From an uncultured Candidatus Rokubacteria bacterium (GTDB lineage Bacteria > Methylomirabilota > Methylomirabilia > Rokubacteriales > DASRDR01), in contig CAWGVS010000006.1 of assembly GCA_963826115.1 (NCBI GenBank), positions 256,001-320,000 of the forward strand: a stretch of DNA of 64,000 nt. The letters are read 5' to 3'. Shown here piece by piece: positions 14,049-17,815 of the stretch. A program made the translations under genes and the position numbers. The notes under the pieces are model-generated. The model made no database searches, was not told the origin of the DNA, and saw only the letters and a list, made by a program, of their open reading frames with translations. The stretch's first letter is position 1, and every line of letters starts with the position of its first letter.

Positions 14049-15101
14049 ATGGTTCGGATTGCAGAATTCAAGAAGGACGCCGCGGAGCGGCTTCGCGCCC
14101 TCTTTCCGCAAGTGGCTGAATGGCAAGAGTCTCTAGATGCGACCGTCGGCGACCAGACGGTGGATGTGCTCGTCCGGTTCCGGATGGGGCCCGGCCAGGA
14201 GACCAAGACACTGATCTGTGAGGCTCGTACCCGGGGTGAGCCCCGGCACCTCCGCGAGGCCGTAACCCGACTTCGAGAGCTCCGGGGCCATGTCCCGGGG
14301 GCCTACCCCCTGGTGGCGGCGCCCTACGTGACCGCCCAGTCCTCGGCCCTCCTGCGCCGGAATGGCTGCGGCTACCTCGACCTGGCCGGCAACTGCTACC
14401 TCGCCTTCGACAACGTCCTCATCCAGAAGGAAGGGCGCCCCAACGCGGGACTGGTCCGCCGTCCCCTCAAGGCCCTGTTCGCGCCGCGGGCGACGCGGAT
14501 CGTCCGCGCCCTCCTGGTGGAGCGGGACCGCGCCTGGCGCCTCGACGAGCTGGGCCGGGCGGTCGGCGTCAGCCTCGGCCACGCCCACAACGTGGTGAAG
14601 CGCCTCGAGGAGCTCGACTGGGTGGAGCGGGGGCGGGACGGGCTCTACCGGCTGCCGCGGCCCGGGGACCTGCTCGACGCCTGGCGCGACGGGTATCGCT
14701 ACCGCGTCAACGGGCTGAGCGCCTTCGTCTCCCCGGCGGGAGACAAGCGCCGGATCATGGAGGCCCTTGCGCGGCACGCGACCGAGCTGGGCGTGACCTA
14801 CGCGTTCACGCTCCACGCGGGCGCGTCCCTCATCGGCCCGCACACGCGTGTCTCCACGGTGCACTGCTACGTGAGCGGCGACACCGAGGCGCTCATCCGG
14901 GCCCTCGGGCTCCAGCCGGTCGAGGGCGAGGGCGCGGTCTACCTGATGGCTCCGTACGACCCGGGCGTGTTCTACGCGCCGGTGGTCAAGGGCGGGTTCC
15001 GGGTGGTCAGTCTCCCGCAGCTCTACGTGGACCTCTACGGCCACGAGCGGCGCGGGCGCGAGCAGGCCGAGAAGCTCCGTCGCGACGCGATGGGGTTCTA
15101 G
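14049..15101 (+). CDS. AbiEi-like type IV TA antitoxin family regulator (DUF2186/AbiEi_2-like; degenerate PD-(D/E)xK N-domain plus wHTH)
   Basis: PLVAAPYV...GYLDLAGNCYL; HTH segment LDELGRAVGVSLGHAHNVVKRL; DLLDAWR; VVSLPQLYVDL..RGREQAE; ATG at 14049 lies downstream of the promoter. Confidence 0.75.
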   Translation: MVRIAEFKKDAAERLRALFPQVAEWQESLDATVGDQTVDVLVRFRMGPGQETKTLICEARTRGEPRHLREAVTRLRELRGHVPGAYPLVAAPYVTAQSSALLRRNGCGYLDLAGNCYLAFDNVLIQKEGRPNAGLVRRPLKALFAPRATRIVRALLVERDRAWRLDELGRAVGVSLGHAHNVVKRLEELDWVERGRDGLYRLPRPGDLLDAWRDGYRYRVNGLSAFVSPAGDKRRIMEALARHATELGVTYAFTLHAGASLIGPHTRVSTVHCYVSGDTEALIRALGLQPVEGEGAVYLMAPYDPGVFYAPVVKGGFRVVSLPQLYVDLYGHERRGREQAEKLRRDAMGF

Positions 15102-15134
15102 CCGCGCTCACGCGAGCGGAAGGAGGTGAGCACG

Positions 15135-15170
15135 ATGGCGAAGAAGAAGGCGGCGAAGAAGAAGAAGTAA
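15135..15170 (+). CDS. 11-aa lysine-rich micropeptide MAKKKAAKKKK (copy 1)
   Basis: SD AAGGAGGTGA (15120-29); ATG GCG AAG AAG AAG GCG GCG AAG AAG AAG AAG TAA. Confidence 0.75.
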   Translation: MAKKKAAKKKK

Positions 15171-15246
15171 CGTCGTCAGCGGTGTCGCTCGAAGGGGGTG
15201 CAGCCCCTTCGCGGAACCCAGACGTCACGAGGGGAGGTGATGATCG

Positions 15247-15282
15247 ATGGCGAAGAAGAAGGCGGCCAAGAAGAAGAAGTAG
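15247..15282 (+). CDS. 11-aa lysine-rich micropeptide MAKKKAAKKKK (copy 2)
   Basis: SD GGAGGTGAT (15233-41); differs from copy 1 only by GCG/GCC and TAA/TAG, both synonymous. Confidence 0.75.
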   Translation: MAKKKAAKKKK

Positions 15283-15342
15283 GGTGCTGTGACGGGGTCA
15301 GGGGACGAGGCCAGCCCTGACCCTTCTGGTACTGTCAGCGCA

Positions 15343-15375
15343 GGCCGCCGGGGGCGACTGGCACCCCCGGCGGCC
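15343..15375. terminator. 12-bp GC hairpin between the convergent micropeptide unit and rpmB
   Basis: GGCCGCCGGGGG-N9-CCCCCGGCGGCC; no clear U-tract on either strand. Confidence 0.45.
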
Positions 15376-15379
15376 GGTC

Positions 15380-15571
15380 CTAGACGGCCTTGGTGACCTT
15401 GCCGCCCCGCAGGCAGCGTGTGCAGACGCGGACCCGCTTGGCTCGGCCCTTCACGACCGCCCGCATCGATACCAGGTTCGGCAGCCATCGGCGCGAGGAC
15501 ACGTTGTGCGCGTGGCTGATCTGGTTGCCCACGACGGGACCCTTCCCACACACATCACAGCGTTGGGCCAT
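15380..15571 (-). CDS. rpmB: 50S ribosomal protein bL28
   Basis: MAQRCDVCGKGPVVGNQISHAHNVSSRRWLPNL...VCTRCLR; commonly found next to recG. Confidence 0.95.
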   Translation of the reverse strand: MAQRCDVCGKGPVVGNQISHAHNVSSRRWLPNLVSMRAVVKGRAKRVRVCTRCLRGGKVTKAV

Positions 15572-15721
15572 GCCTCTGGACTCCTCGGGAGAGATGACGC
15601 TCCGGCCGGCTTTCCCGGGCCCGGAACGGGCCGGCTTGCCGCCGAGCAAGACACTTCTATACCATGGGGGCCGAGGTGAGACAAGCCTGACACCTCGTCT
15701 GCTCCCGCGGCCGTCTCGCCC

Positions 15722-17815
15722 GTGAACCCGGTCGCCAAGCCGCCCGTCGGCCTGGACACCCCCCTCCAGTACCTGAAGGGTGTGGGACCCCACCGGGCCG
15801 GGCTTCTCGAGCGCCTGGGTCTCCTGACGGTCGGGGACGCCCTGAATCACTTCCCCCGGGACTACCAGGACCGCCGAGCATTCGTGCCCTTCCACAAGCT
15901 CGCCCTCGGGGAGTCGGCCGTGGTGCAGGGGACCGTGTTCGGCGTGGCGCCGCCCCGGCGCGGATCCAAGGGGCCCCTCCTCGTGACCTTCCGGGACCAG
16001 ATGGGGTACTTCTCGGCGATCTGGTTCGGCAAGGGCTTCCTCGTGCACACGTTCAAGCGCGACCAGCGCGTGGTCCTCTACGGGAAGAAGATCGTCGGCA
16101 AGGACCGCAAGGTCGTCCTCGAGAACCCCGACTTCGAGATCGTCGAGGCCGACGATCTGGCGTCGATCCACATGGGTCGCGTGGTGCCCGTCTACCCGCT
16201 CACCGAGGGCGTGCTCCAGCGCTTCTTGCGGGGACTCCTCCACGACGTGGTCGTGGCGCATGCGAGCGAGGCCCCGGACATCCTGCCGGATGATCTCCGT
16301 CGCCGACGGAATCTCCTGCCGGTCTCCGCGGCGTACCGCACCGTGCACTTTCCGGAGCGTCTGGAAGACGTGGAGGAGGCGCGCCGGCGCTTCGCCTTCG
16401 AGGACTTCTTCGTGCTGCAGGTGGGTCTCGCGCTCAAGCGCCGCCGGCAGGCGCGCGAGCACGGCCGGCCGCTCGCCCCCGCGGGCGACCTCGTGGCGCG
16501 GCTCCTCCGCGGGCTGCCGTTCGCGCTGACGGCCGCGCAGGAGCGCGTCTGGTCGGAGATCCGAGGGGATCTCGGGCGCCCGGTGCCCATGAACCGCCTC
16601 CTCCAGGGCGACGTGGGGTCCGGCAAGACGATCGTCGCCGTCATGGGGCTCCTGACGGCGGTGGAGGCCGGGTGCCAGGCCGTCTTGATGGCGCCGACCG
16701 AGATCCTCGCCGAGCAGCACTTCCGGACGGTCCGCGGGCTCGTCGAGCCGCTCGGACTCACGGTGGCGTGGCTTTCCGCCGGCCTGCGGAGCCGGGAGCG
16801 TCAGGCTGCCCTGGAGGCGCTCCGGAGCGGCGCCGCCGCCATCGGGATCGGGACCCATGCCCTGATCCAGGAGGCCGTGGAGCTCCAGCGATTGGGGCTC
16901 GCCGTCGTCGACGAGCAGCACCGCTTCGGCGTGCTCCAGCGCGCGTCGCTCCGCGGCAAGGGCGAGCACCCGCACGTGCTCGTCATGACGGCGACGCCCA
17001 TCCCGCGGACGCTCGCCCTCACGCTCTACGGAGACCTCGACGTGTCCGTGCTCGACGAGCTGCCGCCCGGGCGGACACCCATCGTGACCAGGGTCCGCCG
17101 CGAGCCCGACCGAGAGCGGATCTACGGCTTCATCCGCGACGAGCTCCGCGCGGGCCGCCAGGCCTACGTGGTCTGCCCGCTCGTCGAGGAGACCGAGGCC
17201 AGCGACCTCAAGGCCGCGACCGAGATGGCGGAGCGTCTCACGGCCGGCCCGTTCCGGGACGTCCGGGTGGGCCTGATCCACGGGCGGCTCGGCTTCGACG
17301 CGAAGGAAGCGATCATGCGGGCGTTCAAGGCCCGGGAGATCGACCTCCTGGTGGCGACGACGGTGATCGAGGTCGGGATCGACGTGCCGAACGCGTCGGT
17401 GATGCTGATCGAGCACGCCGAGCGCTTCGGTCTGGCCCAGCTCCACCAGCTGCGCGGCCGCGTCGGCCGCGGGGCCGCCAAGTCCTTCTGCATCCTGCTC
17501 GCGAGCGGCCCCGCGTCCGACGAGGGTCAGCGGCGCCTCGCGGCCATGGAAGCCACGCAGGACGGGTTCCGGCTCTCGGAGGTCGATCTCGAGATCCGGG
17601 GCCCCGGCGAGTTCTTCGGGACCCGCCAGTCGGGTCTGCCCGAGTTCCGCACCGCGAGCCTCGTGACCCACGTGCGGCTCCTCGAGGAGGCGCGCCAGGA
17701 CGCCGCGCAGCTGATCCACAAGGACCCCGGGCTGCGCCTGCCCGAGCACCGGGCGCTCCGCGAGGCTCTCGTCGCCCGCTGGCGCGAGCGTCTCGAGCTG
17801 GCGTCGATCGGATAG
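15722..17815 (+). CDS. recG: ATP-dependent DNA helicase RecG
   Basis: RLLQGDVGSGKT, DEQHRFG, MTATPIPRTL, QLHQLRGRVGRG. Confidence 0.97.
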   Translation: MNPVAKPPVGLDTPLQYLKGVGPHRAGLLERLGLLTVGDALNHFPRDYQDRRAFVPFHKLALGESAVVQGTVFGVAPPRRGSKGPLLVTFRDQMGYFSAIWFGKGFLVHTFKRDQRVVLYGKKIVGKDRKVVLENPDFEIVEADDLASIHMGRVVPVYPLTEGVLQRFLRGLLHDVVVAHASEAPDILPDDLRRRRNLLPVSAAYRTVHFPERLEDVEEARRRFAFEDFFVLQVGLALKRRRQAREHGRPLAPAGDLVARLLRGLPFALTAAQERVWSEIRGDLGRPVPMNRLLQGDVGSGKTIVAVMGLLTAVEAGCQAVLMAPTEILAEQHFRTVRGLVEPLGLTVAWLSAGLRSRERQAALEALRSGAAAIGIGTHALIQEAVELQRLGLAVVDEQHRFGVLQRASLRGKGEHPHVLVMTATPIPRTLALTLYGDLDVSVLDELPPGRTPIVTRVRREPDRERIYGFIRDELRAGRQAYVVCPLVEETEASDLKAATEMAERLTAGPFRDVRVGLIHGRLGFDAKEAIMRAFKAREIDLLVATTVIEVGIDVPNASVMLIEHAERFGLAQLHQLRGRVGRGAAKSFCILLASGPASDEGQRRLAAMEATQDGFRLSEVDLEIRGPGEFFGTRQSGLPEFRTASLVTHVRLLEEARQDAAQLIHKDPGLRLPEHRALREALVARWRERLELASIG

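Follow-up and report, generated by a model that had tools for sequence, protein, structure and literature searches.

Lysine-rich micro-genes beside rpmB in Rokubacteriales: a three-copy family that may encode a polycationic peptide

We analysed a stretch of 64,000 nucleotides (nt) from an uncultured Candidatus Rokubacteria bacterium (GenBank assembly GCA_963826115.1, contig CAWGVS010000006.1, positions 256,001 to 320,000 of the forward strand), hereafter the window, with a focus on two tandem open reading frames (ORFs) that both read MAKKKAAKKKK. Sequence comparison indicates that these micro-ORFs belong to a family of micro-genes with three copies in this genome and near-universal occurrence in Rokubacteriales, and the variation among the copies makes it probable that they are translated genes under selection for the peptide.

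Each of the two micro-ORFs has lysine at 7 of its 11 codons, and their start codons lie 112 nt apart (Table 1). Micro-ORF 1 reads ATG GCG AAG AAG AAG GCG GCG AAG AAG AAG AAG TAA, and micro-ORF 2 is the same except for GCC instead of GCG at codon 7 and TAG instead of TAA at the end. Since the 3' end of the 16S rRNA of the same genome is GGATCACCTCCTTTCT, the Shine-Dalgarno sites 1 and 2 are 10-nt and 9-nt perfect complements of it. An earlier reading of these letters, made without database searches (the sequence-only reading), had described two identical ORFs with a 112-nt period, preceded by 9-10 nt complements of the canonical 16S end, differing only silently and separated by dissimilar spacers. 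Direct reading of the window and comparison with the genome's own 16S end confirmed this description: one difference falls at a third codon position (GCG/GCC) and the other at the stop (TAA/TAG), and the spacers differ except at the Shine-Dalgarno sites. The statement that the GCG/GCC change would alter a residue in other frames also holds, with E/Q in the +3 frame and F/L in the antisense frame. The G+C content of the micro-ORF region is 0.615 compared with about 0.70 in most flanking bins, and the region has the lowest G+C and the strongest A-skew of the neighbourhood. In structure prediction, the minimum free energy and centroid folds both contain hairpins 1 and 2 and leave the purine-rich micro-ORFs unpaired.

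The 36-nt micro-ORF pattern, with up to 3 mismatches allowed, was matched twice in the window and never in 100 dinucleotide-preserving shuffles. The whole genome (6,244,856 bases, 72% G+C) was also scanned for ORFs of 6-26 codons with at least 50% lysine. The scan returned the two window ORFs, the first also in a nested reading from a GTG start, together with a third paralogue and two ORFs of 6-7 residues without a Shine-Dalgarno site; beyond the three micro-ORFs, it found no lysine-rich short ORF with such a site. Perfect anti-Shine-Dalgarno complements of at least 9 nt containing GGAGG numbered 177 on both strands of the genome. One of them is the 3' end of the 16S gene itself, on the opposite strand, three belong to the three micro-ORFs (10, 9 and 9 nt), and a start codon 3-10 nt downstream is missing from most of the rest. 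The sequence-only reading had counted the two sites among the strongest that it noticed in the window, and they do rank at the top genome-wide, among these 177. An origin of the micro-ORFs by chance is excluded.

The pattern of change among relatives was examined first within the genus, where an alignment of 13 genomes had variable columns at 0/14 Shine-Dalgarno positions, 11/72 ORF positions and 88/144 other non-coding positions. Changes in the ORFs were wobble substitutions, ATG/GTG and TAA/TAG exchanges and insertions of whole AAG codons. Spacer indels were not multiples of three, which rules out long antisense ORFs at the locus. In the same alignment the upper stem and loop of hairpin 1, GGGTGCAGCC, are invariant in 13/13 rows and the lower stem varies on both sides; in hairpin 2, GCCAGCCC is conserved and the stem likewise changes on both sides.

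A wider set comprised 122 distinct Rokubacteriales-type copies from high-G+C loci, filtered for at least 45% lysine and a Shine-Dalgarno site; because of this filter and the relatedness of the genomes, its counts overstate independence. The reading frame and an in-frame TAA or TAG stop were kept in all 122 copies, with ATG (102), GTG (18) or TTG (2) as start codon and a length of 10-23 residues (11-13 in 110 copies). Alanine is encoded by GCG 217, GCC 77, GCA 11 and GCT 10 times, and lysine by AAG 906 and AAA 53 times. The 1365 residues after Met1 are K 959, A 315, T 36, R 25 and G 20, with S 3, V 3, M 2, L 1 and P 1 as minor residues; D, E, N, Q, H, C, F, Y, W and I do not occur among them. 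Glutamate is missing although its codon GAG is one transition from AAG, in the G+C-favoured direction, and one step from GCG. The absence of glutamate, the replacements by arginine and the drift in length together imply selection for net positive charge, and at the level of sequence they point to charge as what is selected, rather than the exact sequence, the purine tract or the lysine codon as such.

The stop codons of the 122 copies are TAG 74, TAA 48 and TGA 0, whereas the long ORFs of the genome use TGA 1689, TAG 838 and TAA 82 times (65% TGA). TAA/TAG switches are frequent among orthologues and TGA never appears; the probability of zero TGA in 122 would be about 6e-56 for independent copies, a figure overstated by their relatedness. 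Analogous ORFs in AT-rich genomes (36 ORFs, found with a search pattern neutral between AAA and AAG) use AAG for 142/282 lysine codons compared with 441/1939 in neighbouring genes (Fisher p 1.3e-20); AAA and AAG alternate in them, and A-runs are at most 9 long. Since long A-runs promote slippage, we read this alternation as keeping the frame, and the AAG enrichment would reflect selection for frame fidelity and thereby for the correct peptide. The selection on the peptide that the sequence-only reading had suspected from two copies thus finds support in the frames, starts, stops and residues of 122.

The distribution of the micro-genes was assessed with two motifs and with synteny; the genome tallies include three unpublished genomes (G038, G113, G244), on which alone no claim hangs. 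The motif with up to 1 mismatch occurred in 27/41 genomes, among them each of the other 14 members of the genus. The strict motif (no stop, no mismatch) occurred in 137/251 genomes of the phylum: by family, 20/20 in f1, 115/159 in f2, 1/1 in f3, 0/1 in f4 and 0/1 in f5, and 0/68 genomes in eight families of other, sister orders. A control pattern read backwards gave zero matches in both searches. For a motif-free test, we took the DNA that follows the upstream neighbour, a gene for a 349-residue winged-helix protein, in 20 genomes picked for absence of the strict motif. All 20 had one or two lysine-rich micro-ORFs with a Shine-Dalgarno site at the syntenic place, among them the variants MKKKATKKKKKK, MAKKKKAAKKKKK, MATKKKAAKKKKK and MKKKTKKKKK, and the first ORF is longer, at 20-25 residues, in one genus (e.g. 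MAKKKAKKTSVKRRKVTKGRKRH). None of the 20 stretches was without an intact ORF (start, Shine-Dalgarno site and stop), in a comparison that did not extend to remnants of extra copies; the frameshifts, lost starts and random non-synonymous changes in relatives that had been named as evidence against a peptide were absent from these 20 sites. The synteny-anchored search thus finds micro-genes that the motif undercounts, with 137/251 genomes positive for the strict motif and yet 20/20 motif-negative genomes positive by place.

Given that all 20 syntenic sites carry micro-ORFs and that rpmB is convergent and directly downstream in 24/25 loci of the window type (the 25th locus ends too early), the order winged-helix gene, micro-ORF(s), convergent rpmB and recG is, on sequence comparison, a fixed feature of Rokubacteriales. 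The adjacency of rpmB noted in the sequence-only reading was therefore borne out, in a convergent orientation in which rpmB is not co-transcribed with the micro-ORFs. In the larger family of the order, a near-invariant hairpin, GGTGGGGGGTGGCGGCCTCCCACC, stands after the last micro-ORF (L152-L171); in L152, for instance, it lies about 30 nt beyond the ORF with its start at base 135. Its 5' arm resembles the local Shine-Dalgarno variant GGGGGTGA, its 3' arm holds CCTCC (the anti-Shine-Dalgarno core), and its conservation is unusually high for a terminator.

Table 1. Features of the micro-ORF locus (positions of the window)
Feature	Position	Strand	Description
Micro-ORF 1	15135..15170	+	MAKKKAAKKKK, stop TAA
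Micro-ORF 2	15247..15282	+	MAKKKAAKKKK, stop TAG
Shine-Dalgarno site 1	15120..15129	+	AAGGAGGTGA; 10-nt perfect complement of 16S 3' end; 5 nt before ATG
Shine-Dalgarno site 2	15233..15241	+	GGAGGTGAT; 9-nt perfect complement of 16S 3' end; 5 nt before ATG
Hairpin 1 (predicted fold)	15190..15211	+	CGAAGGGG / GTGCAG loop / CCCCTTCG; no U-tract after
Hairpin 2 (predicted fold)	15295..15323	+	GGGTCAGGG / 11-nt loop / CCCTGACCC; then TTCTGGT (weak U-tract)
Winged-helix protein gene (349 residues)	14052..15101	+	same-strand upstream neighbour of the micro-ORFs; longest ORF from 13977
G+C-rich hairpin	15343..15375	.	GGCCGCCGGGGG ... CCCCCGGCGGCC; between convergent units; read from sequence
rpmB (ribosomal protein L28)	15380..15571	-	PF00830 Ribosomal_L28, E 2.4e-21
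recG	15722..17815	+	RecG_wedge, DEAD, Helicase_C, RecG_dom3_C; divergent from rpmB

The third copy of this genome, MAKKKATKKKK, lies on another contig (G000:C5:1098947-1098982; locus L003, 1501-1536) and stands single. It was aligned with 13 counterparts from its family of genera (14 sequences, of which L023 and L059 are identical and apparently one place). Upstream of the ORF, an invariant TTGACA is preceded by the T-rich GTTGCATTTT and separated by a spacer of 17-18 nt from a second hexamer, which reads TAGCAT in 10/11 rows of the own genus; the remaining row has TAGGAT, and the three other genera have TACxTT. Next come about 55 nt of leader, AGGAGGTGA and the ORF, and 3' of the ORF stands an invariant hairpin, TCGGAGGCCCCGC...GCGGGGCCTCCGCGC, with a short T-run after it. 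The ORF itself varies by ATG or GTG starts, ACG/ACC wobble and TAA/TAG stops. TTGACA-17-TAGCAT would be a strong-looking promoter in a genome of 72% G+C, and the alignment shows the singleton as a self-contained transcription unit with its own putative promoter and terminator. The sequence CACCTC after the ORF, which resembles an anti-Shine-Dalgarno sequence, was considered as a pairing partner of the Shine-Dalgarno site and rejected, since three other genera carry the GGGGGTGA variant without a matching change in CACCTC.

The singleton is followed by a gene for an EamA-type transporter, 13-114 nt downstream in all 9 loci (two families). Upstream, a divergent B12-binding radical SAM gene adjoins it in 4 loci, and in the other family a phosphoribosyltransferase-like gene takes that place. 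In most genomes of the genus, a conserved TGGTAGGGT lies 7 nt before the GTG of the EamA gene (L003 1635-1652, contig C5); its TAGGGT hexamer ends 6 nt before that GTG, which begins at the seventh base after it. This arrangement suggests that TGGTAGGGT is an extended -10 promoter of a leaderless EamA mRNA.

RNA from the region was looked for in soil metatranscriptomes. Six runs contained a small share of it, of which four, from three studies, were compared, and RNA contigs over the micro-ORFs were present in all four. A 97-nt contig corresponds to 15115-15211 with 0 differences and spans micro-ORF 1, two contigs lie over micro-ORF 2 (15182-15276 and 15244-15279), and three join the stop of the upstream gene to micro-ORF 1 (14897-15123, 14970-15158 and 15056-15164). 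In run X15, contig depth was 16.8 for the exact 97-nt contig compared with 3.57 for rpmB and 2.5 for the upstream gene, but such depths are flat and summed over related organisms, and cannot rank genes or give strand or ends. A summed depth of about 190 over the micro-ORFs includes contigs of related organisms and was not used for level. We regard these contigs as a hint that micro-ORF RNA is abundant. No sigma-70 promoter or intrinsic terminator consensus was found within 14700-15800 of the window, and the micro-ORFs may be co-transcribed with the upstream gene or have an internal promoter. Three RNA contigs of one run share 15056 as their first base, with the stop of the upstream gene 45 nt further on; the micro-ORF transcript may start at this base, although contigs cannot show ends. 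High expression, the second suspicion of the sequence-only reading, gains indirect support from the top-ranked Shine-Dalgarno sites, the singleton promoter, the avoidance of TGA and the RNA contigs.

Considering that there is no downstream gene to regulate at the window locus and that no alternative folds are predicted, a peptide acting in trans is favoured. With slightly less than even confidence, we propose that the micro-ORFs encode a polycationic peptide that acts in trans by binding polyanions non-specifically. In its fuller form the proposal is tentative: the product could be an oligolysine polycation made by ribosomes, a gene-encoded equivalent of polyamines and histone H1 tails, produced at very high output and coating or condensing RNA, ribosomes, DNA or polyphosphate. 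It is possible, and we say so with similar reserve, that such a polycation was fixed in a bacterial order and has arisen or spread repeatedly in the candidate phyla radiation (CPR), DPANN archaea, Binatia, Verrucomicrobiota and some phages.

The layout of the unit would suit maximal output, with a Shine-Dalgarno site of 9-10 nt at optimal spacing, an open initiation region, an ORF short enough to be read in about 1 second along an unstructured purine-rich coding stretch, efficient termination at TAA or TAG and then a stabilising or terminating hairpin. Dosage would be raised by the tandem duplication and by the separate copy with its consensus promoter, three copies in all. The product would be a peptide of 10-13 residues whose only constant property is dense positive charge. 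Removal of the initiator methionine before alanine, in keeping with the specificity of methionine aminopeptidase, would leave AKKKAAKKKK, with a mass of 1127.8 Da and a charge of about +7. The targets would most likely be rRNA or ribosomes, otherwise nucleoid DNA or polyphosphate, and the effect would be charge neutralisation, compaction or chaperoning of polyanions, as with polyamines, H1-like tails and the tiniest basic ribosomal proteins. rRNA is the most abundant candidate target, and the fixed place beside rpmB points weakly to it. What the sequences and RNA libraries show is the layout of the units, their conservation, substitutions of coding type, selection for charge and a presence among RNA; translation, methionine removal, stability, abundance and target of the peptide are all matters that we infer.

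Polyamines such as spermidine and spermine are small, soluble molecules with several positive charges and bind to RNA, to ribosomes and to DNA; they are made by enzymes and carry +3 or +4, whereas the micro-ORF peptide would be made by ribosomes and carry about +7. Histone H1-like proteins share with it a lysine/alanine-rich, low-complexity composition and, by analogy, an expected affinity for DNA or polyphosphate, but they run to tens or hundreds of residues with numerous repeats and, in many cases, a folded domain, whereas the micro-ORF product would be a single 10-residue unit. AlgP, an H1-like lysine/alanine-rich bacterial protein, is reported to space polyphosphate granules (PMC9239181). 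The likeness of the peptide to H1-like tails or ribosomal peptides, as drawn in the sequence-only reading, is one of resemblance.

Several points weigh against a polycation acting in trans. Free decapeptides are usually degraded fast in the bacterial cytoplasm, and accumulation is therefore uncertain. The peptide does not replace a lost polyamine pathway, since speE and speH are in the genome (matches to Spermine_synth, to AdoMet_dc, two, and to Orn_Arg_deC_N, two). Nor is there a sign that it replaces a lost small ribosomal protein: in a test of four families, L36, L34, S21 (two matches, C12:343459-343617 and C6:692721-692879) and L30 were all present. The EamA gene downstream of the singleton would fit a role in cis, and the relatedness of the 122 copies and the flat contig depths mentioned above count on the same side. 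Outside Rokubacteriales the occurrence is patchy. The micro-ORF is not universal in the DPANN class, where the strict motif was found in 4/121 genomes, a lower bound since the motif undercounts. Nor is it universal in CPR bacteria, where the roughly 950 nt before secA (less in two genomes, because of contig ends) contained a lysine-rich ORF in 0/20 sampled genomes; the five short basic ORFs of these stretches show nothing like the lysine run of the micro-ORFs. In sister orders, five near-complete genomes had no strict motif, and a looser motif gave 2 matches, both with glutamate codons.

Were the peptide produced and active in trans, its genes would be among the smallest conserved genes of prokaryotes, would push the lower size limit of such genes down and would add a gene-encoded polycation to the means by which a cell manages the charge of its nucleic acids. 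Annotation is blind to such genes through its minimum gene length, as is standard proteomics, in which trypsin destroys the peptide. The family would offer a clean test case, with three copies, a defined promoter and terminator, an order-wide place and expected products of 1127.8 and 1157.8 Da that are easy to synthesise.

The alternative that survives best, though we consider it unlikely, is a device acting in cis, in which translation of the lysine (AAG) run senses the supply of lysyl-tRNA, the wobble modification of tRNA-Lys or the polyamine level. Its output, to which we give the same low probability, would be control over its own transcript or over the gene that follows (EamA; secA or S-adenosylmethionine decarboxylase in CPR bacteria). 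A short ORF with one dominant codon (7/11 lysine), a strong ribosome-binding site and a hairpin 3' of it is the classical leader layout, as in the trp, his, phe and thr attenuators with their regulatory codon runs. The transporter encoded after the singleton in 9 loci of two families is of a carboxylate/amino acid/amine transporter-like type, and the CPR micro-ORFs precede secA or S-adenosylmethionine decarboxylase. There is also a published precedent in an AAG-containing 7-residue leader peptide that tunes abrB via MnmE-dependent AAG decoding (PMC13733827). At the window locus, however, there is no same-strand gene next that could be regulated, rpmB being convergent, and the downstream gene in DPANN is convergent too. 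Folding predicted single hairpins from 19-21 nt after the stop, with no alternative pairing between ORF and hairpin and no antiterminator (z-scores -0.84 and -0.01). The singleton has its own promoter and terminator-like hairpin, and the EamA gene has its own conserved -10-like TGGTAGGGT, presumably a promoter. Tandem duplicates with separate Shine-Dalgarno sites are unusual for leaders, and arginine in place of lysine and growth to 20-25 residues with T, S, V, G and H dilute a codon sensor but keep the charge. Should the device in cis be true nonetheless, it would be an unusually widespread lysine- or AAG-sensing leader.

A narrower form of the polycation proposal, in which the product is a stoichiometric, lineage-specific ribosomal micro-protein in a defined rRNA pocket, appears less probable still. 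It would account for a product that is tiny and extremely basic and has expression signals of the level of ribosomal proteins, and very small basic ribosomal proteins are known, bTHX and eL41 among them. bL38 of Bacteroidia, a 5.6-kDa protein, is encoded downstream of bL28 and bL33 (PMC11851116), and the fixed place of the micro-ORFs beside rpmB in 24/25 loci recalls its position beside the bL28 gene. These proteins, including the bS22 and bL37 of Actinobacteria, are likewise tiny, very basic, missed by gene callers and provided with strong expression signals. The micro-ORF peptide, at 10-13 residues, is at most half as long as the small ribosomal proteins, and its low complexity and free drift in length (10-25 residues) and sequence are unlike a peptide held in a fixed pocket. 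The micro-ORFs are convergent with rpmB, outside its operon and not co-transcribed with it. The singleton and the copies of other phyla lie away from ribosomal protein genes. Three copies per genome, together with a contig depth above that of rpmB (a weak measure), exceed one-to-one stoichiometry. Variants of at least 20 residues match no ribosomal family of Pfam or NCBIfam, and L36, L34, S21 and L30 are present.

A non-coding RNA element, whether a sponge for the 30S subunit or an RNA-binding protein, a 5'/3' stabiliser or a small RNA with a GAAGAAG seed, in which the ORF is incidental, is very unlikely. The Shine-Dalgarno sites and hairpins are conserved like the ORF, with stems that change on both sides, and the singleton resembles a compact small RNA gene, about 150 nt long and equipped with a promoter and terminator of its own. 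The best Rfam 15 matches, however, had E values of 7.7 and 9.4, on the minus strand and far below gathering scores. The variation also follows a reading frame (four GCN codons, AAG/AAA, ATG/GTG/TTG, in-frame TAA/TAG and codon indels), glutamate codons are excluded though GAG would preserve the purine tract, and AAG is enriched in AT-rich genomes, avoiding slippery A-runs. The most improbable alternative is a modified or exported peptide, either made by the B12-radical SAM enzyme in the manner of ribosomally synthesised and post-translationally modified peptides (RiPPs) or exported as a cationic antimicrobial by the EamA transporter, whose genes adjoin the singleton in 4 loci and follow it in 9: the other family has the phosphoribosyltransferase-like gene instead, the window locus has no such enzyme or transporter, the peptide lacks a leader/core organisation as well as any signal or hydrophobic segment, and EamA/DMT (drug/metabolite transporter) carriers move small metabolites.

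Six lysine-rich ORFs of 23-75 residues had 0 Pfam or NCBIfam families at E of 10 or less; the 11-residue peptides themselves fall below the 20-residue minimum of such searches. In an exact look-up against a collection of 15 billion proteins, four longer variants (23, 25, 30 and 75 residues) were absent. Neither the literal peptide strings nor descriptions of such ORFs were found in the literature covered, outside of which lie supplementary files and many subscription journals. A eukaryotic parallel in layout, tarsal-less/polished rice of insects, has tandem small ORFs for 11-residue peptides on one transcript (PMC1852585). These peptides conserve a specific motif rather than charge only, and are unrelated in sequence and biology. 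Features of secretion-monitor arrest peptides were absent from the CPR copies upstream of secA, whose peptide has no hydrophobic residues, and features of RiPP precursors were absent as well, with no leader and a radical SAM neighbour in only 4 loci. By sequence criteria, the micro-gene family appears to match no described gene family and to be without at least one defining feature of each nearest known kind.

Similar ORFs were also sought in all prokaryote species, where at least 119 stretches matched, at least 99 of them with an ORF of 15 residues or less of the form MAKKK-x-x-KKKK(K/R). Among the listed matches are Rokubacteria, DPANN archaea, CPR/Patescibacteria, Binatia or 'Deltaproteobacteria', Verrucomicrobiota, Brocadiales, Eisenbacteria and others, and a GAGGTGA-type Shine-Dalgarno site is found in most listed matches outside CPR bacteria and Verrucomicrobiota. 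Each group has a conserved order of genes of its own. In CPR bacteria, murB, micro-ORF, (S-adenosylmethionine decarboxylase) and secA follow one another in about 15 listed loci, with secA visible in 13, and the micro-ORF lies 13-122 nt upstream of secA or the decarboxylase gene. The DPANN order is M50 peptidase, micro-ORF and convergent gene in up to 9 listed loci, and in three listed loci of Verrucomicrobiota a GH77 gene precedes the micro-ORF. Homology among such short low-complexity ORFs cannot be established, and repeated origin is as likely as ancient descent.

Some details of these loci deserve mention. In some CPR bacteria (L099 1464-1955, L101, L111, L121, L128, L129), the S-adenosylmethionine decarboxylase gene stands 13-90 nt 3' of the micro-ORF, and a link between the polycationic peptide and polyamine metabolism is possible there. 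The M50 gene of DPANN archaea (site-2 protease family; L061, L066, L069, L086, L118, L120, L125) encodes about 475 residues, and the convergent gene in 4 DPANN loci encodes a protein of 117-139 residues, one representative of which had no Pfam or NCBIfam family. Longer lysine-rich ORFs of 30-75 residues made of a repeated micro-ORF unit, e.g. MAKKKATKKKKATKKKATKKK..., occur in Phycisphaerae, Bdellovibrionales and other groups (L037 5558-5782, L033 3315-3404, L088, L105). With lysine-rich ORFs of 20-75 residues in other taxa, lengths may thus grade continuously between the 10-residue peptide and H1-like proteins.

Viral matches came from 41 contigs, many of them without a Shine-Dalgarno site and in lysine-rich coding-like sequence; judged from 25 upstream bases, many may be the ends of longer proteins. 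In one group of phage fragments (L187 2338-2406 and nine similar contigs, L185, L191, L202, L208, L213, L214, L218, L220, L223), an ORF of 21-25 residues rich in lysine and arginine was seen, with AAGGAGGT as the ribosome-binding site. The ORF of L187 lies immediately upstream of an exonuclease gene. An assignment of the phage ORFs to microvirus DNA-binding proteins is wrong for L187, the one contig checked, which has an exonuclease and a small terminase subunit and, lacking any ORF of at least 250 residues, no large capsid gene.

The gene upstream of the micro-ORFs is near-universal and single-copy in Rokubacteriales (174/183 genomes, and 77/77 high-quality genomes) and is the same-strand upstream neighbour in 23 loci. 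Its 349-residue product has HTH_IclR (E 9.6e-06, weak) as its one Pfam match, and neither an NCBIfam family nor a meaningful PDB sequence match was found for it with a single sequence or a profile. Many residues are invariant in an alignment of 22 sequences, and the gene is always directly upstream of the micro-ORFs. Between the convergent units, the G+C-rich hairpin keeps GCAGGCCGCCGG in 13/13 rows of the genus alignment; it is likely to be the terminator of rpmB and may be active in both directions. recG, on the far side of rpmB, recurs as a neighbour in a cluster of 16 loci.

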